From Bacteroidota bacterium (GTDB lineage Bacteria; Bacteroidota; Bacteroidia; Bacteroidales; JAAUTT01), in NCBI GenBank assembly GCA_020048915.1, contig JAIFLU010000027.1:7614-71613 (forward strand): a DNA stretch of 64,000 nt, written 5' to 3'. Both the position numbers and the translations under genes were made by a program. Below the pieces are notes generated by a model. That model ran no database searches. It was not told where the DNA came from and saw nothing but the letters and a program-made list of their open reading frames with translations. Shown here piece after piece: positions 22,758 through 64,000 of the stretch (positions are counted from its first letter, which is position 1; each line of letters begins with the position of its first letter).

Positions 22758-22852
22758 ATTCTAAAATAGGGCAATTCAAAATCTAATAAACTGCACATTA
22801 TTAACCGATTTACTCTGGTCATAGAAAAAGTAGAACCTAAATAACCCAAGAT

Positions 22853-24586: not shown

Positions 24587-24604
24587 GGAAAGGGAAATGG
24601 AGGA

Positions 24605-24744
24605 CCTCACCCCCAACCCCTCTCCTGAAATTGAGGGGAGTGAATTCCGGTTAATTATTGAATGTTTTGTTTAATTGTTCAACGAAGTTCAAAGTCCCTC
24701 TCCTCAAAGGAGAGGGTCCCGAAAGCTTTCGGGATAGGGTGAGG
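24605..24744. repeat. Nested-palindrome intergenic repeat, copy A (CCTCACCC...CCCTCTCC-loop-GGAGAGGG...GGGTGAGG)
   Basis: Shares ACCTCACCCCnnCCCCTCTCCTG, CCGGTAAT, AACGAAG, CAAAGTCCCTCTCCT, AGGAGAGGG and TAGGGTGAGGT, in the same order, with the copy at 39720-39835. It also carries an extra hairpin, TCCCGAAAGCTTTCGGGA. Confidence 0.85.
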
Positions 24745-24783
24745 TTTTCAGGGTATATCAATTTAATGTCAACAACACCACCA

Positions 24784-26646
24784 ATGAAAAAAATTTTACT
24801 CTTTATTTTAAGTATAATTGCTGCCATAGGCCTATTTGCTCAAAACGCAGATACCATTTTCAAACATCCACGAGGTATTATCAACATAAGCACTCAGCAG
24901 AAAATGCGTGAACGGGTGCAGCGCGAGCCTTATAAATCGCTTCTTTCAGAATTCGAAAAGAAAACCCTCGAAAATGTAGGCAACGATAAACGGATAATCA
25001 CCCGTGCAACCGCCTATGGTATTCTTCAGAACATGCTCGACCTGGCCTTTCTGCACACCATGACCGCGCAACAAACCTATGCCGACCAGGCTTTTGGTTA
25101 TATTGACCAATGTACGTCTGATTCCGGTTTCTGGCAAAATCCTATGTCTTTCGGCTTATCTCGTGCCCGTTTTCTGCGCAACTGCGCCATTGTGTACGAC
25201 CTTTGTTTCAATGCCTGGAATACGGCACAGCGGCAAAAAATCAGCCAACGGTTGATCGATTGCGCTTTTTCCATCAACTCCACTTTTGGTTTCGATGCCA
25301 ACTATGCCCAGGAAAGCAACTGGATGGGAGTGCGTTACGGGGCAATTTTTCTGGCCACAATTGTAGCCGATGATTATTCCTCAATCGGCGGTCGCCGTTC
25401 TCCTGTAAACGCCCTTAACTGGGATTCGAGGGAACGATTGCGCGACCACATCCGGGTAAACATCAGCCCAAATGGCTGGAGTGCCGAGAGTCTCGGGTAT
25501 CACTTTTTTGCCTGGTCGTTTATAACCCCGGCCATAGCAGCGTTCCAGAATAATCTTCCGGGAAACAATGCCACAAAAATTGAAAACTATGCACCTCATG
25601 CGCTGAATTCCTTTTTGGCGCTTACTTCTTCCATTGTAAACATAACGGGAGCCAATGGCAAAGGAGTAAAAGCCGACCTGTCCGACGATAACCTGGGAAT
25701 CAGTCCCGATTTATTCCTGCAGGTAATTCCCATATACCCTGCCAGTCAGTTACCTGTAATAAAATGGATGGTTGATTATCTGAAAGATGAAAATCTTGTG
25801 AATTCCATTTTCTACTATGCAGCCTATTATCCCGAAGATGTCCAGTCGGAAAATCCTGCCAGCTGCGGCTTACTAAACTATATTGAGCCTGCACAGGGAG
25901 CTGTTGTTTTTCGTAACCGGTTTCAGGACGAGAACGATATTGTAGCCACCTTTACCACCACCAGCAAACGGGTAAGGGCGCATCAATCGGGCGATAACCT
26001 TACTTTCCGGATTTTGGGTCTGGATAATATCTGGGTAATTGGAGCAGGAAGAACAGGTCAGTTTGCCGGCCAAACCAACCTTTTTCCTTTCGACACCATT
26101 TCCAAAAAGGGAAATTATATCTCCGGCTCGTTAGGAAAATTGCTCGATTACAAATTTCTTCCCGATGGATCCGGCTTTGCCAAAGGAACAGGGAGCTGCA
26201 TGGGCGTTGAGGACCATATCCGGTATTTTTGGGCCGATTACAACAAAAAATCGGGTGCTGAAGCTGTTTTTGTGATAAAAGACCAATCGAAAAACGGTAA
26301 AACCTGGCGGATGAACACACCTGAATTCAACAAGGTCGAAAGCACTGCGGATGGTTTTATAATCACAGCCCCAAATGGAGCAACACTTAAAGCTACCATA
26401 ATCAACGGAGATGCCAGTAAAACCATTTCAACAACAACGCTGAGATATGGGGGAGATACCCGCGATAATGTTGCAGGCATTGGCTTTAAAGGTAAATATT
26501 ACGCAAACACAACGGCCATCGACTGCAAATGCATCGGAAACATCATGGTGGTAGTTACACTTCAGCCTGCGGGTAAACAGCACCCTGCCGTTGTTTACCG
26601 AAATAAGAAACTGTCGGTTGGCAGTGTTGAAATCATCAAAGAATAA
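24784..26646 (+). CDS. Secreted protein, possibly a heparinase II/III-like / alginate-lyase-like polysaccharide lyase
   Basis: The real start is probably MKKILLFILSIIAAIGLFAQ at 24784, because the ORF-track start at 24658 reads through the repeat element. HPRGIINISTQQKMRERVQREPY resembles the N-termini of toroid-type lyases. Assignment is tentative. Confidence 0.45.
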   Translation: MKKILLFILSIIAAIGLFAQNADTIFKHPRGIINISTQQKMRERVQREPYKSLLSEFEKKTLENVGNDKRIITRATAYGILQNMLDLAFLHTMTAQQTYADQAFGYIDQCTSDSGFWQNPMSFGLSRARFLRNCAIVYDLCFNAWNTAQRQKISQRLIDCAFSINSTFGFDANYAQESNWMGVRYGAIFLATIVADDYSSIGGRRSPVNALNWDSRERLRDHIRVNISPNGWSAESLGYHFFAWSFITPAIAAFQNNLPGNNATKIENYAPHALNSFLALTSSIVNITGANGKGVKADLSDDNLGISPDLFLQVIPIYPASQLPVIKWMVDYLKDENLVNSIFYYAAYYPEDVQSENPASCGLLNYIEPAQGAVVFRNRFQDENDIVATFTTTSKRVRAHQSGDNLTFRILGLDNIWVIGAGRTGQFAGQTNLFPFDTISKKGNYISGSLGKLLDYKFLPDGSGFAKGTGSCMGVEDHIRYFWADYNKKSGAEAVFVIKDQSKNGKTWRMNTPEFNKVESTADGFIITAPNGATLKATIINGDASKTISTTTLRYGGDTRDNVAGIGFKGKYYANTTAIDCKCIGNIMVVVTLQPAGKQHPAVVYRNKKLSVGSVEIIKE

Positions 26647-26653
26647 CTTCAAA

Positions 26654-26860
26654 ATGAGAAAGATACTACTGCTTTTAACTTTACTCTTTGCTTGTTCTGC
26701 TTTGTTTTCGCAAGTCTGGACTTACCGGACAGGTCCCGATACGCTGAAAAACAGATCGTATTATGCTTACCTGTGGATTCCGGAAACTGCAGCCAAAGGC
26801 ATCAGAGGGTTGATACTTGCCCCGCAAATCTCCGCCGAATGGCAGTTTATTAAATACTGA
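26654..26860 (+). CDS. 68-aa signal-peptide ORF, possibly a remnant of a truncated gene
   Basis: MRKILLLLTLLFACSALFSQ followed by only 48 residues. Squeezed between two enzyme genes. Confidence 0.3.
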   Translation: MRKILLLLTLLFACSALFSQVWTYRTGPDTLKNRSYYAYLWIPETAAKGIRGLILAPQISAEWQFIKY

Positions 26861-26885
26861 AACCGTACTCTTACACATTAGTTAT

Positions 26886-29111
26886 ATGAAAAAATTGTTT
26901 ACTATCCTGCTTCTAAGCTTCATAATTGGAAATTCCAATGCGCAGCCATGGTCGGATAAAACTTATCCCGATGAAAATGGGTATCAACAACGCATCAAGG
27001 GGGTGTTGCCCAAAATTGCAGCCAAAGGATTTGGAATTCGTAGCCTGGCCGTTTCGAAATGTCCCGATACTGGTTTGCCTGTAAGGGTGTGGGCTGTGGA
27101 AGGCGACGATATTATTTCCCCTTATACCGGACGTAAATACAAACAAGGCTCTACCGATTATTTCGGACCGAAAGCGAGGAACGAAAAGGGCGAAATCTCC
27201 GCTTTTGGAGGCGATCCGCTGAAATACGATCTGCCACCGGCTACTGCAACGTTGCTGCTCAATCCCGAAAATGCAGCAGCCAGGGCATTCCTGAGTATAC
27301 CGGGAAACCTGCGGCAGCAATACCATTTTGCCTGTAAAAACTGGGCCAGGTTTTATCCGCTATTAGCTGATCAAATGAGCGAACAATGGAGATCGGATTT
27401 CTGGAGCCATGTGGCCTCGTATGCCGAAGGCAGAAGGCCCTCGGATGGACCAAGTCGCGAATGGCTTACATTAACAAACAAGCATAACCTGGTGGGACAA
27501 CCCGGTCAGCTCCTGGGTGGCAACCCGCTCGACGGAGGCACCGAAAACCACAAAACCATGTGGCGAACCAGCGGTTTGCTGTATTCGCAGATTTTACCCG
27601 ACACATGCCGGGTTTCAGGCTATCCGGCCAAAGAAGCCGAAAAACTCACCAAAGACATGATCCGTGATTACCTGAAAAGACTCCTCCTTACCGGAAATGG
27701 CGAATATGACTCTCAGATTTACTACCCGCACAGCATCGAAGGTTTTTTGAATCTCTACGACTTCTCACCCGATGAAGAAACTCGCCTTCTTGCCAAATTC
27801 GCACTCGATTATTATTTTGTCACCTACGGTTTGAAAGTTATCGACGGAACCATTGCTGGTGCCCAGAAAAGAGGTTACCTGGCCAATGGCATTGCCGGTG
27901 AAATGGAAACAATGCTTTGGGCCTATTTCAATAACACTTCGCGCGATATGAGCCGGGAAGTTCTCACCATTCAGCAGGCGACTACCAAATACCGGCCAAA
28001 TCAGGTAATTTACAATATCGCCAATAAAAATATTGCACTTCCTTTCGAAGCCCGTATGAGTCGTCCTTTTTACCATATGGACTATCCGCATGCTTTTGCC
28101 GAAACCTTTTATTGCAGCAATTCCTATGCGATGGGAAATATCCAGATGACCATTGTGGATAATCCTAACCAGCAGATGGTATGGTCGGTGGTTACCCGTG
28201 GGAAAGAAATGCCTTACTGTTTCAGCGGCGGACATCCGATGCGGGGCAGCACCTCCGGACACAGTCCTTATAATCAGACATTGCAGTCGAAAGGCACGCT
28301 TATTCTGCTTACAGCACCAACTCTAATTCCGGCACAACCCGACACTTCTATTGCCCCAACCTATTCAAAAGCTAAACGCGATAACTTGTGGCTTTTACCA
28401 AAAGAGGAGCAGGGAGATAACTTTGAGTTCAAAAACCGCATGAAATATGCTTCGAAAGAGCTGACCAGAATAAATCCTCCTGCTGATAATTCGCCCGCTG
28501 AAATAGAACGCTTCTGGAACGAAAGCAAAGGATCGGCAACTTCCTGGTTTTATTACCCAAAAAACTTGAGTCCTGTGGAGAAGGATGGCATTTTCTTTCT
28601 GGAAACAGAAACCATGCTTATGGCAGTGGTGCCTATATCTAAAGGAGGTTTTGTATGGGCTCCCAAAATTGCTAAAAATGGGAACTCCGAGTGGCACAAA
28701 TTTTTTAAAGATTATAGTATAATCGCATTTCCCGGAGAAGTTTCTGGATATGTGGTAGAAACGGCTGAAAAGTCTTCCTACGGAAGCATTGACAATTTTT
28801 GTCAGGCACTTCTCAGAAAGACAAACCTCGATCTTTCAAAGCTTTCGCAGGATAAGGAAATAATTTATACCAGTCTTTATGGCGAGAAGCTTAGGATGGT
28901 ATATAATCCTAATGGCCTGAGTTGTTCGGCCTGGATCAACGGTAAAAAGCAGGATTGGACTAATCACACCAACGGAGCCGTTTACGACAGCCCTTTTCTT
29001 AAAGTGAAAAACGGAATGATGAAAGTCTCGGATGGCAAAAACGCCTATGAGATAGATTTCCGTAAAGAGAAGCCCGATTTTAAAGTGTTAACCTCTCCCG
29101 TTTTAAAATAA
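26886..29111 (+). CDS. Secreted hypothetical protein of the PUL, family not recognised
   Basis: Start chosen at MKKLFTILLLSFIIGNSNAQ (26886) rather than the ORF-track start at 26817. 741 aa, no motif that I can assign. Confidence 0.6.
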   Translation: MKKLFTILLLSFIIGNSNAQPWSDKTYPDENGYQQRIKGVLPKIAAKGFGIRSLAVSKCPDTGLPVRVWAVEGDDIISPYTGRKYKQGSTDYFGPKARNEKGEISAFGGDPLKYDLPPATATLLLNPENAAARAFLSIPGNLRQQYHFACKNWARFYPLLADQMSEQWRSDFWSHVASYAEGRRPSDGPSREWLTLTNKHNLVGQPGQLLGGNPLDGGTENHKTMWRTSGLLYSQILPDTCRVSGYPAKEAEKLTKDMIRDYLKRLLLTGNGEYDSQIYYPHSIEGFLNLYDFSPDEETRLLAKFALDYYFVTYGLKVIDGTIAGAQKRGYLANGIAGEMETMLWAYFNNTSRDMSREVLTIQQATTKYRPNQVIYNIANKNIALPFEARMSRPFYHMDYPHAFAETFYCSNSYAMGNIQMTIVDNPNQQMVWSVVTRGKEMPYCFSGGHPMRGSTSGHSPYNQTLQSKGTLILLTAPTLIPAQPDTSIAPTYSKAKRDNLWLLPKEEQGDNFEFKNRMKYASKELTRINPPADNSPAEIERFWNESKGSATSWFYYPKNLSPVEKDGIFFLETETMLMAVVPISKGGFVWAPKIAKNGNSEWHKFFKDYSIIAFPGEVSGYVVETAEKSSYGSIDNFCQALLRKTNLDLSKLSQDKEIIYTSLYGEKLRMVYNPNGLSCSAWINGKKQDWTNHTNGAVYDSPFLKVKNGMMKVSDGKNAYEIDFRKEKPDFKVLTSPVLK

Positions 29112-49240: not shown

Positions 49241-49867
49241 TTGAAGCATTATATAAAGCAATTAATCGACTCGGGCGAAAGCCAAACACTCGATTTTAAA
49301 TTTGAGGTTTCTGATTCCCGCAAAATTGCAAAGACTTTTGTAGCATTTGCAAATACCGATGGCGGTATTTTGTTAATTGGAGTAAAGGATAATGGTTCAA
49401 TAGCCGGGGTGCGATCGGAAGAAGAATATTATATGGTGGACGGGGCAGCTAAAATGTATTGTAAACCGGAAGTTTCATTTCAATCGCGCAAATGGAATAT
49501 CGAAGGTAAAACTGTACTCGAAATTACTATTCCTAAAAGTTCTGGTAAACCTCATTATACGTTGACTGAGGATAAAAAATGGATGGTTTACATTCGGGTT
49601 GGAGATCAGAATCTGTTGGCAAACAGTATCCTGCTAAAAGTGTGGCGGTATAAAAAGGAAAACCAATCCATCTACCTTGAGTACTCCAAAACTGAAAAAG
49701 TACTTCTCGAATACCTTGAAAGAGAGCAAAACATAACAATGTCAAAATTTTCTAAAATAGCCTTAATAACGCACAAAGAGGCAGAAAATGTTTTGGTGAA
49801 ATTGATTTCACTAAATTTAATAGAGATTGTTTTTACTGAGAAGCAAGTGTTCTACAAATTACCTTAA
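49241..49867 (+). CDS. AlbA_2 (Schlafen-like, putative nucleic-acid-binding) domain protein with a C-terminal winged-helix-like region
   Basis: ESQTLDFKFEVSDSRKIAKTFVAFANTDGGILLIGVKDNGSIAGV. Starts at TTG. Confidence 0.65.
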   Translation: MKHYIKQLIDSGESQTLDFKFEVSDSRKIAKTFVAFANTDGGILLIGVKDNGSIAGVRSEEEYYMVDGAAKMYCKPEVSFQSRKWNIEGKTVLEITIPKSSGKPHYTLTEDKKWMVYIRVGDQNLLANSILLKVWRYKKENQSIYLEYSKTEKVLLEYLEREQNITMSKFSKIALITHKEAENVLVKLISLNLIEIVFTEKQVFYKLP

Positions 49868-54647: not shown

Positions 54648-54700
54648 GTAAAAGCTATTGGAATTCTAACATTCTAATAATTTATATTCTGGAAATTTTG

Positions 54701-54738
54701 GGTTAAATCTATACAAAAGATAGATTTAACCTTTTTTT
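54701..54738 (+). terminator. Rho-independent terminator
   Basis: Perfect 12-bp stem GGTTAAATCTAT / ATAGATTTAACC, loop ACAAAAG, followed by TTTTTTT. Confidence 0.85.
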
Positions 54739-55135: not shown

Positions 55136-55996
55136 ATGACAATAACCAATCAGGATTTACAGATATTTATTAATGCGATAAAAACTTCATCGAATTACGA
55201 TTTCAGTGAATATTCCGATAAATCCCTGAAGCGGAGGTTAGCTAAAGTTTTGATCGATTACAAGATGGAGATTAGTGGCTTAATCTCTCAATTAAAGGGA
55301 AATAACACATTTCTTGAGCAGGTTGTTAAAGATGTTACTGTAAACACTACCGAGTTATTTCGCGATCCTAATATCTGGCAGATCCTAAAATATCACGTAC
55401 TCCCCAAATTTAAAAACCAATCAAGCATAAACATTTGGCATGCTGGATGTTCAACGGGGCAAGAAGTATATTCTTTACTAATGTTGTTGCATGAGCTTGA
55501 TTTATTCGAAAAGTCAAAAGTATATGCAACCGATCTAAACAACGACGTTCTCCAGGTTGCTAAAAAAGGAGTTTATAAATATCGGTTTAATATTAATTAT
55601 CTCGACAACTTCGATAAATCGATGAAGGAGAATCCATATAATTATGAAGAGTATAATGAGATTCCGTATGAAAAATATTTTACCATTGATAAATCGAAAG
55701 ATATTATTAAAATGAACCAGTTTTTGTTGGATAAACCAATCTTTAAAAAGCATGATTTAGTAAAAGATGGAAATATTTTTTATGTGAAGTTCGATTTAAT
55801 TCTTTGTCGGAATGTAATTATATATTTTAATTATGAACTTCAAAATAAGGTTTTTGATTTGTTCTATAATAACCTTTATCCCAATGGATATCTACTTTTA
55901 GGTATGCACGAGTCTATACTGGGACCCTATGCTTCCCGCTTCGATAAAATGGGACAGTTTTATCAGAAAAAGGAGATGTTTACCTATATGCCATAA
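55136..55996 (+). CDS. cheR: CheR-type protein-glutamate O-methyltransferase (copy 1)
   Basis: CheR_N-like helices (SEYSDKSLKRRLAKV), TELFRDPNIW, SAM motif INIWHAGCSTGQEVYSLLMLL, and DLILCRNVIIYFN. Confidence 0.8.
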   Translation: MTITNQDLQIFINAIKTSSNYDFSEYSDKSLKRRLAKVLIDYKMEISGLISQLKGNNTFLEQVVKDVTVNTTELFRDPNIWQILKYHVLPKFKNQSSINIWHAGCSTGQEVYSLLMLLHELDLFEKSKVYATDLNNDVLQVAKKGVYKYRFNINYLDNFDKSMKENPYNYEEYNEIPYEKYFTIDKSKDIIKMNQFLLDKPIFKKHDLVKDGNIFYVKFDLILCRNVIIYFNYELQNKVFDLFYNNLYPNGYLLLGMHESILGPYASRFDKMGQFYQKKEMFTYMP

Positions 55997-56153
55997 CTTA
56001 AATTCGAATTTTGAATAATGAATGCATCATGTTTCATGAACATTTTTAATATATTTAGAAGTTTTTCTTTGGTATTGTCTCAATTTCCATAATTATTAAT
56101 TATGAAAAAAGCATGGAGAGTATACATTTTGTTAATATTTAGACAACTGGTAA

Positions 56154-58850
56154 ATGATTAAGGCATTCAGCTCCATAAAAGCCAAACTGGCAGCAATTAT
56201 TAGTATAATTATTGCCCTTTTTGCAGTTTCATATATCATGGTTTATAATAGCATGTATTACTCCCAGGATGCTATTAAACAGTCTGTTAACCTGAAATAT
56301 CTCCGACTGTATCCTGAAATGCTTCAAAGCCAGCTCAATACGTTACTGCAGAAAGAGATTTTAGAGACCGCTATTTATCAAACGGAGGTTAGTACTGCAT
56401 TAGATTCAATGATTCGTATAAGAAAAAACCATGTAAAGCTGCTTGATACAATATTTTACTCGCATTATCTCCGGAAAAAAGAGCTTCTTGGTCAGTCGAA
56501 AGGAATTAGAATTGAATTGGCTAAGTTTATTAATGGCAATGAATTGCTGTTTAAACAACTTTTGGAACGCGGGTCCTTAACAACTGGAAAAGCTGGAGAA
56601 TGGAACCGGCAAGGCGATTTTATTGAAAACTATTTTTCGGTATTAAAAAATCCTGTTTTATTAAAATCCTGGATAGATATTCGCAAGCACGAATTTAAAT
56701 ATTGCTTACTGCACGATCCAATTTCTTTTGAAGAATTGGCGAAAAGCGCTACTTTACTGAAATCGAATTTAGCTTCAAAGGCACCTGATCTTACAAGGTC
56801 AGTTTCGGAAGGCGATAGGTTAAGAAGCGATGCAGAGATTGGAAAATATTTGGAACTCGCCTTTTCAGTTCGTGGAAAAGATAAATCGATCGGTATTGGA
56901 ACCAATCAAGGAATAATTGGCAATCAATTATTCCAACTAGCCATTATCTCGGAAAAATGCAATTTACTTAGCCAAAACCTGGAGAAGCAATTAAATTCGT
57001 TTATTTTCAATCAGTTTTTATTACGAATATTTACATTATTATTTCTTACTGTAATTGTTTTATATTTCATATCAAGCTGTTACAGAAATATTCAACGTTC
57101 TATCTCTGGCATAATCAATTATCTTCTGGAATTAGTGCAGGGAAAGCTCCCTGAGCCTATAACCTTAGAATCCAAAGATGAGTTAAAAAGGATTTCAGAA
57201 TTAATTGGAGAGTTTGTTTTAAGTATTCGGGGGAAAGTTAAATTTGCCCAGCATCTTGGTAAAGGAACGAATAATCAGGAGCTAGTGCCTTTGAGTAAGG
57301 ATGATACATTAGCAAATGCTTTGTTGGAACTGCAAGTAAGTTTGAAGAAAGCTTCCGAAGAAGATGCCAAATATAAAATTGAAGAAAAGAAAAGGGCATG
57401 GTCTAATGAAGGATTGGCAAAATTTATTGAAATACTCCGGTATCAAACCACAAGTATTGATGAGTTATCCGATTTAATTATTAAAAACCTGGTAAAATAC
57501 CTGAATGCTAATCAAGGAGGTATTTTTGCTTATTTTGACGATATTCCGGAAGATCAACATCTTGAATTGGTTTCTGCTTTTGCGTTTGATCGTAAAAAAC
57601 ATCTGCAAAAGCGGGTGGAGATTGGCGAAGGCCTTGTGGGGACATGTGCTCAGGAAAAACTTACGATCTATATGACCGATATTCCTGCTGAATATATTTC
57701 AATAACTTCTGGACTTGGAGAAGCAACTCCCCGTAGCTTGCTTATTATCCCTTTAAAAACAGAAGATGCGATATATGGAATACTCGAGATTGCTTCCTTT
57801 AATATTTTGGAACCTCACGAAATTGAATTCGTGGAGAAATTAGCCGAAAGTATTGCATCAACATTTGCTTCGTTAAAAATTAACGTTCATACTTCAAAAC
57901 TGCTTGAACAATCGAAAAAACAAGCAGAAGAAATGGCACAGCAGGAAGAAGAAATGCGCCAAAACCTCGAAGAGCTACAGGCAACACAGGAAGAATCGGA
58001 CAGGCGTGAAGCTGAAATTTTAAGTATTGTCGGAGCTATCGATCTCTCCTCCGTGGTTATGGAATTAGATATGGATGGAAAAATAATTGAAATCAACAAA
58101 AAATATTGCTCCGTAATCAATTGTCATAAGGAAGATTTATTTGGAAAAAACCTTCGTGCAATTTGCTATTTCGATCCTCAAACGGATGATTACAATTACC
58201 TGATTTCGGAACTTCGTAATGGACGAAGTATGGTTCGTGAAGAAGAGGTTCATTTTAACAACAAACAATATTATTTTACACAGAATTACAGTCCTATTTT
58301 CGACAAAGACCGAAATCCTTATAAAATACTTTTAATTGCATCTAATAATTCAGATAAGATTCACCTAAGTGCTAATTTGTCAGAGCTGAACACTAAGCTT
58401 GTTTCGAGTGAAAACCAGTTAAGCAGCCTCAATGATGTGCTCGACAAGGCTCTTATGGTTGCCGAGCTAACTCCGGATGGAACCATCATAAATACAAACA
58501 AAAATTACCTGGAAGTTACTGGTTATCTTCAAAATGAAGTACTAGAAAAAAACGCCAGGTTTTTCCTGAAAGCGGAAGAACTGCGACAATTTGAATTAAT
58601 TTGGGCTGAAGTTGAAAAAGGAAAAGTTCATCAGGGCGTAGTGCGCAGAACCAAACCTACAGGAGAAGAATATTGGCTTATGTCAGCAGCTATTCCCGTA
58701 ACAGATAATAATGGACTGATTCTAAAAGTATATTTTATTGGCCAGGATATTACAGAAAAGAAATTGAAATATCAGGTTCTCGAAGAGGCGAATAAAGAAA
58801 TTGAGCGGCTAAAGAATCTGTATGAAAAAAATAACAAAGAACAAATATAA
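56154..58850 (+). CDS. Membrane sensor: TM, ~270-aa extracytoplasmic domain, TM, HAMP-like linker, GAF, Glu/Gln-rich coiled coil, 2 PAS; no recognisable output domain
   Basis: TM segments AAIISIIIALFAVSYIMVY and LLRIFTLLFLTVIVLYFISS. GAF (GEGLVGTCAQEKLTIYMTDIPAEYISITSGLGEATPRSLLIIPL). Coiled coil LLEQSKKQAEEMAQQEEEMRQNLEELQATQEE. PAS-like blocks (DGKIIEINKKYCSV..., DGTIINTNKNYLEVTGY...GEEYWL). Confidence 0.75.
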   Translation: MIKAFSSIKAKLAAIISIIIALFAVSYIMVYNSMYYSQDAIKQSVNLKYLRLYPEMLQSQLNTLLQKEILETAIYQTEVSTALDSMIRIRKNHVKLLDTIFYSHYLRKKELLGQSKGIRIELAKFINGNELLFKQLLERGSLTTGKAGEWNRQGDFIENYFSVLKNPVLLKSWIDIRKHEFKYCLLHDPISFEELAKSATLLKSNLASKAPDLTRSVSEGDRLRSDAEIGKYLELAFSVRGKDKSIGIGTNQGIIGNQLFQLAIISEKCNLLSQNLEKQLNSFIFNQFLLRIFTLLFLTVIVLYFISSCYRNIQRSISGIINYLLELVQGKLPEPITLESKDELKRISELIGEFVLSIRGKVKFAQHLGKGTNNQELVPLSKDDTLANALLELQVSLKKASEEDAKYKIEEKKRAWSNEGLAKFIEILRYQTTSIDELSDLIIKNLVKYLNANQGGIFAYFDDIPEDQHLELVSAFAFDRKKHLQKRVEIGEGLVGTCAQEKLTIYMTDIPAEYISITSGLGEATPRSLLIIPLKTEDAIYGILEIASFNILEPHEIEFVEKLAESIASTFASLKINVHTSKLLEQSKKQAEEMAQQEEEMRQNLEELQATQEESDRREAEILSIVGAIDLSSVVMELDMDGKIIEINKKYCSVINCHKEDLFGKNLRAICYFDPQTDDYNYLISELRNGRSMVREEEVHFNNKQYYFTQNYSPIFDKDRNPYKILLIASNNSDKIHLSANLSELNTKLVSSENQLSSLNDVLDKALMVAELTPDGTIINTNKNYLEVTGYLQNEVLEKNARFFLKAEELRQFELIWAEVEKGKVHQGVVRRTKPTGEEYWLMSAAIPVTDNNGLILKVYFIGQDITEKKLKYQVLEEANKEIERLKNLYEKNNKEQI

Positions 58851-58852
58851 AA

Positions 58853-59671
58853 ATGGCAGAGATCGGGATTGTTGATACAAGGAATATCATCAAACTGATT
58901 CAGGAAAAATACGCCTGCGATTTTTCCGACTATGCGTTAACATCATTCAAACGCAGGTTGGAGAATATATTGCTTGTCCGAAACCTGAAGCATCCTGAAA
59001 TTCTAATGAGTAAAATAAAAGAGGATAGGAATTTTTACGATAAATTTCTCGATGAAATTGCCGTTCCATCATCTGAAATGTTTAGGGACCCTTCCTTATG
59101 GCGATTATTACGCGATGAAACAATCCCAAAGCTTTATCAAGAAACCCCCAATTTTAAAATTTGGTTGCCTGGCGTAGTTTCGGGTGATGAGCTTTTTTCT
59201 TTGTGCATTACTCTAAAGGAACTTAATTTGTTGGACAAAATACACGTTCATGTTAGCAGTTTGAGCAATTTTAGTTTGGAGTCGATTAAAAAAGGATATT
59301 TAAAAGCATCGAAAGTTGAAGTAAGTGAAGAAAATTATGTAAGGGCAAATGGTAAAGAGAATTTTACCAAATATTATAAGGAGGTAGGCGGTAATTTTTT
59401 ACGCGATACCAGTTTACTGGACAATGTGACTTTTGAACTTCAAAATATTGAAATGGATAATGCTCCTTCCGGAGTGAGGCTTATTATCTACCGAAACAAA
59501 ATGGTTTATTTTAACCCAACATTGCAACTAAAAATATTAAAAGTTTTTAATAGCAGTTTACAACCAAATGGGTATTTAATTATTGGGGTGAAAGAATTTT
59601 TAGGAAATTTATATAATGTTAACGACTTTTCCCTTGTTAATCCAAGCGAAAGTATTTATAAAAAGAAATAA
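58853..59671 (+). CDS. cheR: Divergent CheR-type methyltransferase (copy 2)
   Basis: SDYALTSFKRRLENIL, SEMFRDPSLW, FKIWLPGVVSGDELFSLCITL and RLIIYRNKMVYFN. Same architecture as copy 1, with an altered glycine-rich motif. Confidence 0.7.
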   Translation: MAEIGIVDTRNIIKLIQEKYACDFSDYALTSFKRRLENILLVRNLKHPEILMSKIKEDRNFYDKFLDEIAVPSSEMFRDPSLWRLLRDETIPKLYQETPNFKIWLPGVVSGDELFSLCITLKELNLLDKIHVHVSSLSNFSLESIKKGYLKASKVEVSEENYVRANGKENFTKYYKEVGGNFLRDTSLLDNVTFELQNIEMDNAPSGVRLIIYRNKMVYFNPTLQLKILKVFNSSLQPNGYLIIGVKEFLGNLYNVNDFSLVNPSESIYKKK

Positions 59672-59673
59672 GA

Positions 59674-60231
59674 ATGTACAAGGCAATAGTGATAGGTGGT
59701 TCAGCAGGAAGTTTCCAGGTCGTTACCCGGATACTTAGCAGCTTTTCACCAAACTTCAACATGCCTGTCTTTCTTAGCTTACATAGGTTAAAACATGTAA
59801 GGTCTGGTTTTCTTGAAGCATTAACAATGAAATCGAAAATACCCATTATTGAACCAAACGACAAGGAACAAATAAAACCAGGGAAAGCATATCTTGCCCC
59901 GGCAAATTATCATATGTATATTGAACTCGGAAACCGAATTGCTCTTTCGACTGAAGAACCTGTTCATCATTCACGGCCTTCTATCGATTTGTCATTTATA
60001 ACGGCTTCGAATGTATATCGCGAAAAATTAATCGGCATTATTCTTTCGGGAGCAAATCATGATGGGGCTTATGGTCTGAAAAAAGTGCAAGAAAATGGAG
60101 GATTGACTATCGTTCAGAATCCCAAAGATTGCCAGGTTACTACTATGACTGAAGCTGCCATTAGCCTTGCAAAAATTGATCATGTTTTTTCTATCGACCA
60201 AATGGCCGATTTTATTTCAAAACTTAAATAA
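59674..60231 (+). CDS. cheB: Stand-alone CheB-type methylesterase catalytic domain (no receiver domain)
   Basis: AIVIGGSAGSFQVV (Ser region), HHSRPSIDLSF and ILSGANHDGAYGLKKVQENGGLTIVQNP (Asp region). 185 aa. Confidence 0.75.
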   Translation: MYKAIVIGGSAGSFQVVTRILSSFSPNFNMPVFLSLHRLKHVRSGFLEALTMKSKIPIIEPNDKEQIKPGKAYLAPANYHMYIELGNRIALSTEEPVHHSRPSIDLSFITASNVYREKLIGIILSGANHDGAYGLKKVQENGGLTIVQNPKDCQVTTMTEAAISLAKIDHVFSIDQMADFISKLK

Positions 60232-60237
60232 AAAATT

Positions 60238-60999
60238 ATGCAATGGTTTAAAAATAAGATACTAGTTTATTCAATTATATACTTTTTTTATCTGGTATTT
60301 GTTTTCGTTGCTTTCGGAATGTGGTATAATCAAATTCTGGCAAACTCCTTGCAAGGTAACTGGCAAGTTGCTTTCCCGTTTATAATATCGGTGGTTCTGT
60401 CTTCTTTTTTATATTTGAGTCTAGTTCGTTCTGCTGCTTCAACTATTCAAATTGAAAAGGAGGATAAGGCATCTATTGTTTCTGAAGTAAATGAACTTGA
60501 AGATGTATACGAAGATAAATCCTTTGAAGAATTTAATAAAGAACAATTTATTGCTGCAATTATTCCTGGCGAAAGCACAGCATTGGTTGAGTATTGCGAA
60601 GGGTTATTAAAAAACCTTGCTACACAGCTCGAAATTGTACAAGGCATATTTTATTTGAAAGCGAAAGAAGAAAATACATACGATGCTGTGGCTAGTTACG
60701 CTTATTATAAAAATCAAACTCCGCCGGGTTTCGTTATAGGTGAGTCGCTAAACGGACAGGCACTTAAGGACAAACGAATTCTTATTGTTCAAAATATTCC
60801 GGAAGACTACATTTCCGTTGTATCGGGGTTAGGCAAAAGTAATCCAAAGTGTATTGTAATGCTTCCAATTGTATACAATAATGCCCCTGTTGGGCTAATT
60901 GAATTTGCGAGTTTTAAAGCTTTGGATTCAGTTTATGAATCTGCATTTAAGGAATTAAGTGGTGTAATTGGCGAAAATATTACTAAATTAACGAAATAA
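60238..60999 (+). CDS. Small membrane-anchored GAF-domain protein
   Basis: Two TM segments, an acidic linker, then a GAF domain (GESLNGQALKDKRILIVQNIPEDYISVVSGLGKSNPKCIVMLPI...GLIEFASF). Confidence 0.7.
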   Translation: MQWFKNKILVYSIIYFFYLVFVFVAFGMWYNQILANSLQGNWQVAFPFIISVVLSSFLYLSLVRSAASTIQIEKEDKASIVSEVNELEDVYEDKSFEEFNKEQFIAAIIPGESTALVEYCEGLLKNLATQLEIVQGIFYLKAKEENTYDAVASYAYYKNQTPPGFVIGESLNGQALKDKRILIVQNIPEDYISVVSGLGKSNPKCIVMLPIVYNNAPVGLIEFASFKALDSVYESAFKELSGVIGENITKLTK

Positions 61000-61001
61000 A
61001 T

Positions 61002-63614
61002 ATGCCGGTAAAAGTGTCCGACTTGCTTCAAAAATCTAAAACGCAGATAATTCTGGCTGGTATCATTTTAAGTGGTACTATACCTGTAATTGCCTGGATT
61101 TTAGAATTTCTCTCCAGTAATGTTGCTTTTGGTCTAACAGGATTAGGAATCATTCATCTGCAAAGTCCTTCATTATTTCTTATCGACCTGGTCCCATTTG
61201 CAGTTGGCTTATTTATATATTATTTTATTAGTTGGAACGAAAACGTCAGCCAAAAGAACAAAGAAAGTATTCAGGAACGCGACCATATTATTGCTCGCAA
61301 TGCTGAATTTGCTAAACATATTGGAGCTGGCGATTATACTACTCCTTTTGAAGTAGCTGATGAAGACGCTCTTGGAAAGTCGCTATTACTTATGCGTGAC
61401 AACTTATTACTCAATACGCGTAAGGAATCGGAGCAAAGTTGGATTGCAGCTGGGAAGGAACAAATTTCGACTATCCTTCGAAACTATAATAAAATAGACA
61501 AATTATCTTACGAGGTTATTGTTAGCCTTATCAAGTATTCAAATGCTGTGCAAGGCGCGCTTTATTTGTACAACGAAGAAAAGGAAGTTCTATCGAATGT
61601 TGCAACCTATGCATTTAACCGGAAAAAATATATATCTCAGGAATTTAATATTGGGCAAGGATTAATTGGTCAATGTGCCTACGAAATGGATATTATTTAT
61701 CGTACGGAGGTTCCTGACGATTATGTTACGATTACTTCTGGTATTATTGGCGACAAAAAACCTAAAAGTATTTTAATTCTTCCGCTTATTTCTGACGAAA
61801 AATTATTGGGGGTTATGGAATTTGCCTTTTTATTGGAGGAAATTCCTGAAATAACCATCCAGTTTCTTAAAGAACTTGGCGAAATTATTGCACGTACCAT
61901 CTTTAATTTACTCATAAACCAAAAGACTGAAAAGCTTCTTGAGGAATCCCGGCAAATGACCCAGGAACTTCAGGAAAACGAAGAGCAGCTTCGGCAAAGC
62001 GCTGAAGAAATGCGGGCTACCCAGGAAGAACTGCAACGATCGAATGAAAAACTTGGTACTCAAATACACGAAGTTGAAAATGCTCAAAAGCGGCTACATT
62101 CTTTGCTGGAGAATGCTTCTGAGATTATTTATATTTACGACGAAAACATTGAACTTAAATACATTTCACCTTCGGTAATAAGCATATTAGGATTTGCTCC
62201 TGAAGAAATGATGAAAGGGAAGGATTTGGACCGCCTTACTCGTAAGGGAGAATCCGAAATGAAGAATATGTTTAATCAACTTATTCAAAATCCTGAAGAA
62301 TCCTTTACTATTCAATATACTTACATGAAAAAGGATGGTCAGAAGGTATTTCTCGAAACTACCGGGAGAAACTTGTTGAACGACCAGGCTATTCATGGAA
62401 TTATATTGAACACTCAGGATATTACAGAGCGTAAGCGTGCTGAAAAAGAGGAGCGCATGAAAAGTAAAATGCAAGCTCTTTCTGAAAATTCGCTCGACTT
62501 AATTATGCGGCTAAGTACTCATGGAATGTTTTTTTATTCGAATCCAATTGTTGAAGACTATATTGGTATAAAAAATACGGAATTACTCAACAAAAGCATC
62601 AATGATATTGTAATTCCCGATTCTTTGAAAGAATATTTCACCGGAATTTTGGTTGAAATTAAAAAAGCTCCGAGTAAAAAGAATAGTACTATTACAATAC
62701 CAATGCATCTTGGAGAAAAGGTGACAGAGCGAATTATCAGTTTTGATGCTATTCCTGAATTCAACGAGAACGAGTTAGAAACTGTACTTTTTGTAGGGCA
62801 CGATATTACCGAAGCTAAACGCATTGAGTTAGAAATCCAGGATAAAAATCGTAAGATTGAAGATAGTATAAATTACGCACAGCGCATTCAATCTGCTATT
62901 CTCCCCGATACCCGGTATATTCGCGAATATCTCCCCGAATCATTTATTCTCTATAAACCACGTGATGTGGTTAGTGGAGATTTTCCGTGGTTTTTCCGCC
63001 GTGACGATGTGCTGTATATTGCTGCAGTCGATTGTACGGGGCATGGTGTTCCAGGTGCATTGCTCTCGTTTATAGGCTATTTTATTTTGAATAACATAGT
63101 TGACCACGATAGAGACTATACCGCTTCCGAAGTATGCGACCTGCTGCATAATGGTGTTAGGACCACGCTTAAGCAAAACCGCGACGATGCTCAAGGACGC
63201 GATGGTATGGATATAGCCATTTGCAGAATCAATCTGAAGAAAAAGGAGCTTATGTATTGTGGAGCGCATAGGCCATTATATTTCTTACGGGGCGTTGAGC
63301 TTACCGAATATAAAGGAGATAGAAAAGCAATCGGAGGTATTCCTTTGGGAAATAAGCCGGAAAATAATTTTACAAATTATGTTATTCCTTTTGAAAAGGG
63401 CGATAAGGTATTTTTCTTTTCGGATGGATTGCCTGATCAATTAGGAGGCCCGAACGATAAAAAGTATTCTCCGGGTCGTATCCGTGAACAAATTGTAAAT
63501 AACAGTTCATTTTCGATGCAGGAATATTACGAGCAGTTCGATAAAGAATATTGGGAATGGAAAGGGAATAATAAACAAATTGATGATGTACTTTTAATTG
63601 GTATTGAATTTTAA
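61002..63614 (+). CDS. Membrane sensor phosphatase: TMs, HAMP-like linker, GAF, coiled coil, 2 PAS, PP2C/SpoIIE Ser/Thr phosphatase (SiaA-like)
   Basis: GAF (GQGLIGQCAYEMDIIYRTEVPDDYVTITSGIIGDKKPKSILILPL). Coiled coil LLEESRQMTQELQENEEQLRQSAEEMRATQEEL. PP2C motifs YAQRIQSAILPD, SGDFPWF, AAVDCTGHGVPGALLS, DGMDIAI and FFFSDGLPDQLGG. Confidence 0.8.
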   Translation: MPVKVSDLLQKSKTQIILAGIILSGTIPVIAWILEFLSSNVAFGLTGLGIIHLQSPSLFLIDLVPFAVGLFIYYFISWNENVSQKNKESIQERDHIIARNAEFAKHIGAGDYTTPFEVADEDALGKSLLLMRDNLLLNTRKESEQSWIAAGKEQISTILRNYNKIDKLSYEVIVSLIKYSNAVQGALYLYNEEKEVLSNVATYAFNRKKYISQEFNIGQGLIGQCAYEMDIIYRTEVPDDYVTITSGIIGDKKPKSILILPLISDEKLLGVMEFAFLLEEIPEITIQFLKELGEIIARTIFNLLINQKTEKLLEESRQMTQELQENEEQLRQSAEEMRATQEELQRSNEKLGTQIHEVENAQKRLHSLLENASEIIYIYDENIELKYISPSVISILGFAPEEMMKGKDLDRLTRKGESEMKNMFNQLIQNPEESFTIQYTYMKKDGQKVFLETTGRNLLNDQAIHGIILNTQDITERKRAEKEERMKSKMQALSENSLDLIMRLSTHGMFFYSNPIVEDYIGIKNTELLNKSINDIVIPDSLKEYFTGILVEIKKAPSKKNSTITIPMHLGEKVTERIISFDAIPEFNENELETVLFVGHDITEAKRIELEIQDKNRKIEDSINYAQRIQSAILPDTRYIREYLPESFILYKPRDVVSGDFPWFFRRDDVLYIAAVDCTGHGVPGALLSFIGYFILNNIVDHDRDYTASEVCDLLHNGVRTTLKQNRDDAQGRDGMDIAICRINLKKKELMYCGAHRPLYFLRGVELTEYKGDRKAIGGIPLGNKPENNFTNYVIPFEKGDKVFFFSDGLPDQLGGPNDKKYSPGRIREQIVNNSSFSMQEYYEQFDKEYWEWKGNNKQIDDVLLIGIEF

Positions 63615-63637
63615 AAGCAAACCTAAACTATAATAAT

Positions 63638-64000
63638 ATGAATACAGGAGAAAAACGGGACAATGTCAGCTTCCTCGAGTTTGTTTACGATTTTTACAAA
63701 TCGATGAAAAGGCACGAAATAAGCTTAGTTTATGAAGGGGAAATAACCCATCAGATTACAAAGGCTTTTACGTCACTAACCGAATCGAACATGGCTAAAG
63801 AAGAAGAATCAAATATGGTTCAGAAAAAGGTCTTCCATGTTATGGTTGAATGCCTTCAAAACATTAGCAAGCATGCTGATGATTATGGCACAAACGATTA
63901 TATTTTTTCGGGAAGAGGTATATTCTTAGTTGCTAAAGGCAAAGATGAATATTCTGTAACTACAGGTAATACTGTAGAAAATACTAAAATAGCCGAATTA
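63638..64000 (+). CDS. SiaB-like HATPase-fold protein kinase, N-terminal 121 codons (continues beyond the window)
   Basis: Hand translation gives MNTGEKRDNVSFLEFVYDFYKSMKRHEISLVYEGEITHQITKAFTSLTE...KKVFHVMVECLQNISKHAD. The pattern resembles SiaB-type kinases that partner with PP2C phosphatases. Not in the ORF track because it is truncated. Confidence 0.55.
   Translation, partial: MNTGEKRDNVSFLEFVYDFYKSMKRHEISLVYEGEITHQITKAFTSLTESNMAKEEESNMVQKKVFHVMVECLQNISKHADDYGTNDYIFSGRGIFLVAKGKDEYSVTTGNTVENTKIAEL

Follow-up and report, generated by a model that had tools for sequence, protein, structure and literature searches.

A CheR/CheB pair encoded with GAF-PAS sensors that carry candidate methylation sites and with a SiaABC-type partner switch in Bacteroidales

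In adaptation of the MCP/CheR/CheB kind (E. coli Tsr/Tar type), a SAM methyltransferase of the CheR fold is paired with a CheB esterase bearing a Ser-His-Asp triad, and sites of the form E-[E/Q]-x-x-A-[S/T], spaced by 7 residues and variable for E versus Q, lie on a long helix after the membrane/input module. The locus analysed here has counterparts of each of these features, its sites being candidates, and orthologues of its sensors contain dCache and HAMP. It differs in that its operon encodes no MCPsignal hairpin, CheA, CheW or CheY, its CheB has no receiver, its helix joins GAF to PAS in what is probably a parallel coil, and its output is a PP2C phosphatase. Wsp-type alternative-function chemosensory systems likewise use CheR and CheB for a non-motility output, and a receiver-less CheB is known from F3-class systems (PMC9239204); unlike this locus, both still signal through MCP, CheW and CheA. 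The closest annotated relatives are the CheB/CheR-fusion sensors (KEGG K13924; CheB-CheR-coil-PAS_10-...), for which we found annotation and no characterisation. There too CheB and CheR are tied to a non-MCP sensor, and the coils are tandem N-E-E-L-Q-S-T heptads followed by a PAS_10-type domain; here, however, the enzymes are separate proteins joined by one extra, probably dead CheR, and the sensors have GAF and, instead of histidine kinase domains, a PP2C output. With SiaABCD of Pseudomonas aeruginosa the locus shares a SiaA-like PP2C, a SiaB-family kinase and SiaC (DUF1987) in consecutive genes, with Y65/N67/T68 of SiaC conserved (PMC8457831). It lacks the diguanylate cyclase SiaD, an ABCG-like exporter is the candidate target encoded alongside, and the phosphatase contains GAF, a coil and two PAS. 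We consider it fairly probable that reversible Glu methylation of non-MCP receptors here tunes a SiaABC-type partner switch that controls the exporter.

The window, that is the whole stretch of 64,000 nt that was analysed, ends in seven ORFs on the + strand (55136-64000; Table 1), separated in order by 157, 2, 2, 6, 2 and 23 nt; ORF calling thus agrees exactly with the co-directional genes that an earlier note on this DNA had described. The seventh runs past the window end. Past base 64000 come the rest of SiaB, then SiaC, an ABCG-type exporter with a TerB/FHA-like region, and two proteins that are secreted; of the operon's 11 genes, the first seven start inside the window. The 11 genes are bracketed by the two best terminator-like hairpins; the hairpin upstream of CheR-A is the end of an oxaloacetate-decarboxylase-like operon and the 5' boundary of the unit. 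By Pfam scan, the other large window ORFs are a polysaccharide-utilisation locus and metabolic genes. Domains were called with Pfam gathering cut-offs and NCBIfam, and TM segments from hydropathy. At these thresholds the CheR, CheB, GAF, PAS and SpoIIE assignments of the earlier note stand, CheR_N falls slightly under its cut-off of 27 in CheR-A and CheR-B (26.1 and 25.7 bits), and the proposed HAMP-like region has no Pfam HAMP match in any window protein, the single hint being a weak NCBIfam match (E 0.008) to the TM2/HAMP portion of an MCP.

Table 1. Features of the operon within the window
Feature	Position	Strand	Basis
Terminator-like hairpin	54700..54732	+	13-bp stem then T-run; L001 3699-3731 (= window coordinate minus 51001)
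CheR-A, 286 aa	55136..55996	+	Pfam CheR 134.8 bits (cut-off 27)
Accessory receptor without output domain, 898 aa	56154..58850	+	Pfam GAF_2 and two PAS; hydropathy
Candidate methyl-accepting helix, 898-aa sensor, residues 590-618	57921..58007	+	QEE[E]MRQN-LE[E]LQAT-QE[E]
CheR-B, CheR-fold protein, 272 aa	58853..59671	+	Pfam CheR 78.3 bits (cut-off 27)
CheB methylesterase/deamidase, stand-alone, 185 aa	59674..60231	+	Pfam CheB_methylest 163.7 bits (cut-off 24)
TM-hairpin and GAF protein (TM-GAF), 253 aa	60238..60999	+	Pfam GAF_2; hydropathy TM hairpin
Receptor-phosphatase, 870 aa	61002..63614	+	Pfam GAF_2, two PAS and SpoIIE 58 bits (cut-off 25)
Candidate methyl-accepting helix, 870-aa phosphatase, residues 318-348	61953..62045	+	NE[E/Q]LRQN-AE[E]MRAT-QE[E]LxKS
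SiaB-family Ser/Thr kinase, 194 aa in full, cut by window end	63638..64000	+	DUF6272 (Pfam); full gene in L001

The order CheRA-[sensor]-CheRB-CheB-TMGAF-PP2C-SiaB-SiaC-TerB/ABC-u300-u147 (10-11 genes) was found in 80 species-level Bacteroidales genomes, and also in metagenome contigs and in Fulvivirga maritima CP089980, a cultured Cytophagales genome. Tenuifilum thalassicum and the MAG CP070654 are further carriers of the operon. The arrangement is hence not unique to this genome, and because it recurs in so many species, chance grouping of the genes is no issue. Median intergenic gaps across related loci are 2-60 nt.

CheR-A is probably an active protein-glutamate methyltransferase, since its SAM motifs (AGCSTGQE, ATD133, FD220..CRN) are invariant in 66 orthologues; its nearest relatives are stand-alone proteins, without fusions. 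The second, divergent CheR of the earlier note does match the family, but is probably no enzyme. In 75/75 orthologues of CheR-B the SAM-ribose Asp of the ATD motif is replaced by S, C or V, and the FD Asp is replaced by K, R or H, with TEMFRDP..W and RN..YF retained; clusters with one CheR retain the ATD Asp. CheR-B is thus probably a catalytically dead pseudo-methyltransferase or adaptor. CheB is, as the note had it, a stand-alone esterase: the CheB_methylest match spans the entire protein and the receiver domain is absent. Its triad Ser10, His37, Asp119 is kept in alignment to 6YMZ, 3SFT and 1CHD, and is invariant in 81 orthologues. The CheR- and CheB-like proteins might no longer perform reversible protein methylation and act as scaffolds or small-molecule enzymes instead, as the clear loss of SAM-binding residues in CheR-B and the many solitary CheR-A-like genes in unrelated contexts without CheB (L088, L089, L091-L093) would allow. 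We regard this as very improbable, given that the CheR-A motifs and the CheB triad are intact and invariant among orthologues at 54-84% identity (66-81 sequences), which counts for methylation; retention of methyltransferase and esterase together across phylum-scale divergence argues for a reversible modification.

The 898-aa receptor consists of TM1 (residues 12-30), an extracytoplasmic domain of ~255 aa, TM2 (288-306), linker, GAF, coil, PAS and PAS. As an accessory component it is missing in about 30/80 related loci; what does not vary is the unit CheR(s)-CheB-TM/GAF. CheR and CheB have one invariant partner, the TM-GAF protein, which adjoins CheB in every arrangement, reduced and split ones included. 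Sensor orthologues in loci L073 and L095 carry Pfam HAMP and dCache_1, inputs that count for receptor likeness. In Fulvivirga the PAS that follows the coil scores as PAS_10 (27.4 bits against a cut-off of 22.1), a domain also present in the coil-bearing fragments of CheB/CheR-fusion proteins, and this counts for receptor likeness too. In L073, which represents one lineage, CheD, the third MCP-modifying enzyme, adjoins the sensor in place of the CheRs, and this counts for methylation. The 870-aa phosphatase is ordered TM hairpin, linker, GAF, coil, PAS, PAS, PP2C. Its PP2C domain has the greatest similarity to SiaA (NCBIfam), with the metal-binding motifs SGDF, DCTGHG, DGMD, SDG and DD invariant.

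Between GAF and PAS, both large sensors have chemoreceptor-like candidate methylation sites, methylation itself being suggested by site motifs and gene linkage. Three E-[E/Q] pairs are spaced by exactly 7 residues in 70 phosphatases and 49 sensors. In both proteins the central site B reads E-E-[ML]-x-A-T, the classical MCP consensus Glu-Glu-x-x-Ala-Ser/Thr (E-E-M-R-A-T in 62-70/70 phosphatases). At phosphatase site A the predicted acceptor position is 35 E : 33 Q between invariant flanks, and its state flips between near-identical sequences. Scored in the first 81 loci, a strict all-Glu/Gln triple-heptad motif was present in 38/46 sensor ORFs, 31/85 phosphatase ORFs and 0/979 other ORFs. The sensor coil ranks 7 of 870 windows for conservation, among the top of the protein, and a single-sequence AF2 model of the phosphatase has a continuous helix over residues 282-371 (pLDDT 86-95 over 309-359). 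The residue at +4 is Ser/Thr at phosphatase sites B and C and sensor site B, with Asn at site A of both proteins and Arg/Lys at sensor site C. Several points count against methylation of the coil. The small residue at +3 is missing from sites A and C. Glu-rich heptads are frequent in coiled coils, and conservation of a signalling helix is expected anyway. In MCPs the sites belong to an antiparallel bundle of four helices, which is what CheR and CheB recognise, whereas only a parallel two-helix coil would exist here.

The methylated protein could instead be the TM-GAF, at its E/Q-rich linker, or the exporter, at its TerB/FHA-like cytoplasmic N-terminus, with the sensor coil left unmodified. TM-GAF is the sole protein always beside CheR and CheB, and its lack of the site motif despite this partnership counts against the coil as target. 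The exporter N-terminus MSEE[VI]LKAL is nearly invariant, and L087, lacking both CheB and sensors, has TerB-ABC-u301-u141 immediately preceded by a CheR of 36% identity to CheR-A. We nevertheless judge another target unlikely: E-E-x-x-A-S/T occurs in just 1/78 TM-GAF and 0/68 TerB-ABC proteins, the TM-GAF linker is weakly conserved (mean column identity 0.42), and L073 keeps CheD, CheB and sensors but has no exporter.

The PP2C protein and SiaB-like kinase, proposed in the earlier note as a partner-switch pair, hold up as such, with SiaC encoded next. The SiaB-family score (NCBIfam, cut-off 85) is 89 bits for the part inside the window and 169.5 bits at full length, though the SiaA-, SiaB- and SiaC-like proteins all score under equivalog cut-offs. 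The SiaC-like substrate and the output gene that the note had sought past 64000 are both there, as SiaC (PF09345, Pfam 142.8 bits, Thr68 conserved) and the TerB-ABC exporter, an ABCG/White-type NBD-TMD half-transporter (TIGR00955, 259 bits). Its N-terminus, modelled from the orthologous fragment P0372 (AF2 pLDDT 84.9), has a beta domain that retrieves almost only FHA domains, at weak fold-match E-values of 0.011 or worse. The canonical phosphothreonine-binding Arg and Ser/His are missing from this domain, and this, like the weak E-values, counts against the main reading. Rv1747 of Mycobacterium tuberculosis is an FHA-regulated ABCG-type exporter; it likewise has the half-transporter after a cytoplasmic FHA-like beta domain and is tied to Ser/Thr phosphorylation. 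By contrast, the exporter here has one FHA-like domain plus TerB, its pThr-binding residues are not conserved, and its regulator would be a SiaC-type phosphoprotein, not a Hanks kinase.

A Pfam scan of large ORFs and phmmer searches of all stop-to-stop ORFs bore out the absence of MCP, CheA, CheW and CheY from the window; phmmer found no CheA, CheW, CheD, REC or Tsr signalling domain. Nor was CheA, CheW or an MCP, which the earlier note would have taken as contrary evidence, found among the operon genes past 64000, or within +/-10 kb in the 80 species. CheR-A, CheR-B and CheB could still serve an MCP or whole Che system encoded elsewhere, their place in the operon reflecting co-regulation or ancestry and the helix being an ordinary one. 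The evidence on MCPs, and on the note's view of a lineage without flagella, is confined to the window and, in relatives, to +/-10 kb, and some relatives point that way: L111, L112 and L118 have a genuine MCP 2-3 kb from a CheRA-CheRB-CheB-TMGAF unit without phosphatase nearby (in L112 at 2.3 kb, PF00015 122.9 bits, with HAMP and, by eye, consensus sites), and in L094, a distant lineage, CheA-CheW-CheW-CheR-HK-CheD-CheB(REC) lies directly upstream of the module. The L094 cluster, however, owns a separate CheR, CheB(REC) and CheD. Packing is tight (2-9 nt) around cheR-B, cheB and the sensor genes, the sensors have MCP-type sites whose acceptor position alternates between E and Q, CheD adjoins the sensor in L073, and Bacteroidales are regarded as without flagella and without Che cores. 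Within the scope searched, we hold service to an MCP or Che system encoded elsewhere to be improbable.

The reduced unit without phosphatase nearby was also seen in L064, L109, L113 and L115. Such units, the L094 cluster, the L111/L112/L118 MCPs and the L087 CheR-exporter pair are the variants that count against the main reading.

The earlier note's proposal, that methylation tunes GAF/PAS sensors feeding a phosphatase-kinase switch, is supported at the level of sequence, none of its sequence-based checks having gone against it for this lineage. We add to it the heptad sites in both large sensors, the likely pseudo-enzyme CheR-B and the accessory status of the 898-aa sensor. The note knew of no characterised example, and our literature search found no paper describing this CheR/CheB-phosphatase-switch system.

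If reversible methylation does tune the switch, the whole pathway would be chemoreceptor-like, with the CheA/CheW/CheY kinase core replaced by a Ser/Thr partner switch. The signal would be sensed by membrane-anchored GAF proteins, namely the phosphatase, TM-GAF and, in some lineages, the 898-aa receptor with its periplasmic domain. By homology to Pseudomonas SiaABC, PP2C would remove phosphate from SiaC Thr68 and the SiaB-type kinase would add it; adjacency suggests that SiaC controls the neighbouring ABCG-like exporter with its N-terminal TerB and FHA-like region, and that the exporter has two partners, one a lipoprotein and the other small and secreted. With SAM, CheR-A would methylate as many as three Glu residues that lie, at heptad spacing, on the exposed side of the GAF-PAS helix in phosphatase and accessory receptor, and the receiver-less CheB would demethylate them, and deamidate Gln, at the same three coil sites. 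Charge neutralisation would shift the helix or coiled coil and reset phosphatase output, amounting to gain-setting or adaptation. CheR-B, having lost SAM binding, probably serves for docking or read-out. With the receiver domain absent from CheB, any feedback would have to use conformation-dependent substrate access or the TM-GAF protein. Sensory 'adaptation by methylation' thus probably operates here outside chemotaxis.

Seven genes on the forward strand fill the end of the window. Our ORF list reproduced exactly the coordinates and shared strand that the earlier note had read by eye, with intergenic gaps of 157, 2, 2, 6, 2 and 23 nt. Pfam and NCBIfam backed its domain calls for all seven, except for a HAMP-like region: Pfam detected no HAMP in the window proteins. 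The same locus is carried by a 268-kb ENA contig (L001), which shows the genes past base 64000. Of the genes that the earlier note wanted looked for there, a SiaC-like one and an output gene, SiaC (PF09345) was found, followed by a TerB-ABC exporter. By hydropathy, the sensor has two TM segments around an outside domain of ~255 aa, and the TM-GAF protein and the phosphatase have a TM hairpin each. The unassigned stretches of these three membrane proteins, and the two proteins encoded after the exporter (u300 and u147), gave no Pfam match, HAMP included, even at E<=10. One of the two strongest terminator-like hairpins of the region lies directly 5' of cheR-A (window 54700-54732), the other immediately 3' of the 147-aa gene; together they bound an 11-gene unit. 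A sigma-70 promoter scan was uninformative in this AT-rich genome (67 sites vs 58.5 expected), and such a scan does not cover Bacteroidota promoter types.

Genes of the module in the window and their continuation on contig L001
Feature	Location	Strand	Basis
CheR-A, 286 aa	55136-55996	+	ORF list, Pfam CheR
Sensor, 898 aa	56154-58850	+	ORF list; GAF_2 and two PAS, no output domain (Pfam)
CheR-B, 272 aa	58853-59671	+	ORF list, Pfam CheR
CheB, 185 aa	59674-60231	+	ORF list, CheB_methylest
TM-GAF, 253 aa	60238-60999	+	ORF list, GAF_2
Phosphatase, 870 aa	61002-63614	+	ORF list; GAF_2, two PAS, SpoIIE 58 bits
SiaB-family kinase (DUF6272)	from 63638, beyond window end	+	ORF list, Pfam/NCBIfam
SiaB, 194 aa, full length	L001, after phosphatase		SiaB-family 169.5 bits vs cut-off 85
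SiaC, 125 aa	L001, after SiaB		PF09345 142.8 bits vs cut-off 24.5
TerB-ABC_tran-ABC2_membrane protein, 1022 aa	L001, after SiaC		ABCG/White type, TIGR00955 259 bits
300-aa lipoprotein-like protein, then 147-aa secreted protein	L001, after exporter		neither matches any family

Elsewhere in the window lie a polysaccharide-utilisation locus and metabolic genes, among them methylmalonyl-CoA mutase. The polysaccharide-utilisation locus (13710-43036) encodes an ECF sigma factor, FecR anti-sigma, SusC/SusD, GH10, GH28 (two) and GH42 proteins, an FAD oxidoreductase and a fucosidase, and includes four consecutive large ORFs (21612-29111; 381, 577, 662 and 764 aa) with no Pfam match at E<=1e-5. Its 24-42 kb part may be acquired DNA, since its GC content is 0.44-0.48 vs 0.33-0.41 around it. 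The protein encoded at 2503-6795 (1430 aa) combines four CBM96 repeats with a chitobiase C-terminal domain and also carries a T9SS C-terminal sorting domain, which supports Bacteroidota origin. A gene at 49241-49867, flanked by the mutase genes and by a DUF3108-like gene, encodes a 208-aa Schlafen/AlbA_2-domain protein, which may be related to defence or regulation.

Synteny was sampled by scanning the CheB protein against one genome per species, which yielded 80 loci at 65-84% identity, all in Bacteroidales-type MAGs; the ORFs of each locus were then compared with the 11 operon proteins by BLAST. The order CheRA-[898-aa sensor]-CheRB-CheB-TMGAF-PP2C-SiaB-SiaC-TerB/ABC-u300-u147 was found in essentially every sufficiently long locus, with median intergenic gaps of 2-60 nt over related loci, so that a gene order unique to this genome, which would have counted against the earlier note, is clearly not what we see. 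The 898-aa sensor is missing in ~30 species and is therefore accessory. Two loci have the unit in two parts, (CheRA CheRB CheB TMGAF) and (PP2C SiaB SiaC ABC u300), which are divergent or convergent.

Outside this clade, other arrangements have fewer CheRs. The complete genome of Fulvivirga maritima (Cytophagales; CP089980.1) has one, in the order sensor-CheR-CheB-GAF-[dCache/HAMP-GAF-coil-PAS-PP2C]-SiaB-SiaC-TerB/ABC-u299-u143, and another locus, L110, also carries a version with a single CheR. Two further complete genomes with the operon are those of Tenuifilum thalassicum and the MAG CP070654.1. Locus L073 has none, reading CheD-sensor(dCache/HAMP/GAF/coil/PAS)-CheB-TMGAF-PP2C-SiaB-SiaC; there CheD stands in place of both CheRs, and a PAS hybrid histidine kinase follows SiaC instead of the exporter (6897-7460 and 15244-18234). 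The exporter trio occurs apart from the signalling genes in L096. In L087 (3290-8659) a CheR that is 36% identical to CheR-A, with SAM motifs intact, lies directly 5' of TerB-ABC, u301 and u141, and CheB, the sensors and SiaBC are all missing from the locus.

Both CheR calls (PF01739/PF03705) hold at the Pfam threshold of the SAM-binding domain. Both proteins score well above the gathering value of 27 bits for the Pfam SAM-binding domain (CheR-A 134.8, CheR-B 78.3), and both fall slightly under the same value for CheR_N (26.1 and 25.7). In CheR-A, motif I (S/T)G(E/Q)E, the ribose-binding Asp of A-T/S-D and F-D..CRN are all present and invariant in 66 orthologues; the catalytic motifs are kept too, and the beta-subdomain region contains an insertion that is conserved. 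CheR-B can be aligned to CheR structures, but the SAM-ribose Asp (A-T-D) is never Asp in 75 of 75 orthologues (Ser in 32, Cys in 19, Val in 10, etc.), and the Asp of F-D..CRN is replaced by Lys, Arg or His. CheR-B has the CheR fold, but these residues argue against listing it among catalytically active CheRs. The single-CheR clusters (Fulvivirga, L110) retain the ATD Asp. Because the Fulvivirga CheR sits where CheR-B does and scores slightly higher against it (191 bits) than against CheR-A (163 bits), we infer that the original enzyme was CheR-B, since degenerated into a putative non-catalytic partner.

Otherwise CheR-A has stand-alone CheRs as relatives, often encoded alone in unrelated surroundings, and in five such contexts the solitary genes had no shared neighbour. 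CheB/CheR fusions were considered as its nearest relatives and rejected, the best 150 representatives being mostly stand-alone proteins of ~280 aa, with few CheR-CheB, CheB-CheR or CheR-REC fusions among them. In two retrieved relatives, P0231 and P0269, the CheR part is joined to CheB and also to an unassigned N-terminal domain of ~100 aa, similar in appearance to a small alpha/beta regulatory domain. CheB itself matches CheB_methylest (PF01339) with 163.7 bits over model positions 1-174, spanning the entire 185-aa protein; the esterase domain begins at residue 5, leaving no N-terminal receiver domain. Its triad Ser10, His37 and Asp119 aligns with 6YMZ, 3SFT and 1CHD and is invariant in orthologues.

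The main rival to a substrate of CheR and CheB within the module's own receptors is an MCP encoded elsewhere. The reported absence of MCP, CheA, CheW and CheY from the window holds by Pfam of the ORFs and by phmmer, and MCPsignal, CheW and CheA were also not found in the 10 kb downstream or within +/-10 kb in the 80 related genomes. Che core genes 3' of the operon, named beforehand as contrary evidence, are accordingly lacking from that stretch of L001. Neither the 898-aa nor the 870-aa protein contains the MCP hairpin (PF00015, no match at E<=0.01; Tsr-domain phmmer negative), and this lineage is presumably, like Bacteroidales in general, without flagella.

Two exceptions with Che core genes or an MCP nearby, L094 and L112, belong to distant lineages. 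In L094 (203-6626; JGI Ga0438694_0625629), from a distant metagenomic lineage whose CheB is 56% identical, CheA-CheW-CheW-CheR-HK-CheD-CheB(REC), where HK is HisKA/HATPase, lies directly 5' of a complete module (CheRA-CheRB-CheB-GAF-PP2C-SiaB-SiaC-ABC) and runs in the same direction; it is the sole such Che-adjacent case among the loci examined. A scan centred on this lineage revealed a reduced CheRA-CheRB-CheB-TMGAF unit without the phosphatase, and in L111, L112 and L118 a genuine MCP is found 2-3 kb downstream of it on the opposite strand. In L112 (8318-15791) the unit also lacks SiaBC and ABC, and the HAMP-MCP (PF00015, 122.9 bits) is 2.3 kb downstream; no CheA or CheW was found in this ~19-kb locus, and the organism is a possible case of an MCP in a Bacteroidales-like bacterium. 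From these reduced units, the invariant core is CheR(s)-CheB-TMGAF, which may serve MCPs in some organisms. Both kinds of locus favour an MCP substrate; for the module as a whole we regard it as unlikely.

Candidate substrates within the module are instead the GAF-PAS linkers of the sensor and the phosphatase. In an AF2 single-sequence model the phosphatase linker is a continuous helix over residues 282-371, with pLDDT 86-95 over 309-359; as the GAF-coil-PAS model is unreliable beyond the helix (mean pLDDT 48.9), its domain packing is left uninterpreted. The linker segment ranks high in conservation (7/870 windows in the sensor, 54/840 in the phosphatase). The helix reads ...NE[E/Q]LRQN-AE[E]MRAT-QE[E]LxKS... 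in the phosphatase and ...QEE[E]MRQN-xE[E]LQAT-QE[E]... in the sensor, so that three E-[E/Q] pairs (sites A, B and C) are spaced by exactly 7 residues in 70 phosphatases and 49 sensors. The predicted acceptors are E329/Q329, E336 and E343 of the phosphatase and E600, E607 and E614 of the 898-aa sensor. Glu-Glu-x-x-Ala-Ser/Thr is the classical methylation site of MCPs such as Tsr and Tar. Across these proteins the [E/Q]-[E/Q]-x-x-A-[S/T] consensus is matched fully at the central site B, E-E-[M/L]-x-A-T, with Ala at +3 in 62/70 phosphatases and 46/49 sensors and Thr at +4 in 69/70 and 49/49, and partially at the outer two. Ser/Thr occupies +4 at phosphatase sites B and C and sensor site B, Asn at site A of both proteins, and Arg/Lys at sensor site C.

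The predicted acceptor at phosphatase site A is Glu in 35 and Gln in 33 of the 70 sequences, while four flanking positions are invariant, and its state differs even among near-identical sequences, which is what deamidation of Gln to a methylatable Glu would be expected to leave. Site C likewise has Gln in several lineages, e.g. L094 and Fulvivirga. A stricter form of the triple motif is confined to the sensor and phosphatase families, with 0/979 hits among other ORFs of the first 81 loci; that CheR and CheB modify another protein within the cluster is, in our estimate, improbable. Methylation of the linker helix is, from sequence, the best-supported explanation and a reasonably likely one: CheR and CheB would modify GAF-PAS receptors controlling a SiaABC-type switch, much as the earlier note had proposed in suggesting that reversible glutamate methylation tunes the GAF/PAS sensors of a phosphatase-kinase switch.

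For the switch itself, PP2C, a SiaB-family kinase and a SiaC with an acceptor Thr are encoded together. The best NCBIfam match of the PP2C is SiaA, at 161.6 bits and below the cut-off of 700. SiaC keeps Y65, N67 and T68, with N67 and T68 invariant in 65 orthologues; in P. aeruginosa SiaC, T68 accepts the phosphate (PMC8457831). Since SiaC-family proteins have been proposed as regulators of the adjacent gene product (PMC8457831), the exporter is the candidate target, and probably the output of the switch. In SiaABCD the target is the diguanylate cyclase SiaD, whereas the next gene here encodes the TerB-ABC exporter and no GGDEF domain was found in the 10 kb downstream.

The exporter N-terminus (L001 13648-14457, 3' of the window) comprises TerB and a beta-domain region, and was modelled from an orthologous 296-aa fragment, P0372, 67% identical to the L001 protein. 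In the AF2 model (pLDDT 84.9) the TerB domain is helical, and a beta domain spans roughly residues 155-235. The best PDB folds for the latter in Foldseek are nearly all FHA, with probability ~1 but E 0.011-0.5 and target-normalised TM-scores of 0.4-0.5. By sequence, neither Pfam nor PDB profiles matched FHA in the exporter, and the canonical pThr-binding residues (GR, SxxH) are not conserved, so that a phospho-dependent contact between SiaC and the exporter is plausible only.

All the component families are known ones, and databases already annotate CheB/CheR-fusion sensors (K13924). In those, CheB and CheR share one polypeptide with a coil and PAS_10, while the present cluster encodes them separately. 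It has a similar coil; PAS_10 was matched by the Fulvivirga orthologue alone, in the PAS after the sensor coil. A query with a coil sequence of the CheB/CheR-fusion type returned 76 short ORFs with tandem N-E-E-L-Q-S-T heptads, many named 'CheB/CheR fusion protein' by JGI or containing PAS_10. A like helix thus stands beside CheB and CheR in two independent architectures. REC-CheB response regulators differ by the receiver domain that this CheB lacks. Full-text literature searches on CheR/CheB with GAF, phosphatase, STAS or partner-switch partners, in Bacteroidetes and in fusions, found neither a description of the cluster nor one of methylation of a non-MCP sensor.

We tentatively suggest, as a reading that falls a little short of probable, that Bacteroidota hold a phylum-wide, previously undescribed adaptive pathway of receptors modified by CheR and CheB/CheD, a SiaABC-type switch and an ABCG-like exporter. 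In this pathway dCache/HAMP/GAF-PAS receptors would carry MCP-style methyl-accepting sites on one linker helix, which CheR and a receiver-less CheB or CheD would write and erase, with the dead CheR paralogue as a putative adaptor or reader. The receptor signal would pass through a SiaABC-type Ser/Thr partner switch, not CheA/CheW/CheY, and the switch would gate the ABCG-like exporter through its TerB/FHA-like domain. The three named candidate residues per protein are specific enough for mass-spectrometric and mutational tests; the pathway, if true, would also offer a testable handle on the CheB/CheR-fusion sensors, long annotated and unstudied.

Reversible glutamate methylation is a textbook mechanism of sensory adaptation, to our knowledge demonstrated so far only on MCPs controlling CheA. 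If CheR and CheB do work on non-MCP receptors that drive a phosphatase/kinase partner switch, adaptation or memory would reach a different signalling chemistry, and a regulated exporter system common among Bacteroidales of gut, rumen, sediment and bioreactors would be identified. Bacteroidota are, as far as we know, generally held to be non-flagellated, and the pathway, if true, would explain the 'chemotaxis' genes that they keep; methylation-based adaptation would then be a portable module, independent of chemoreceptor arrays and motility.
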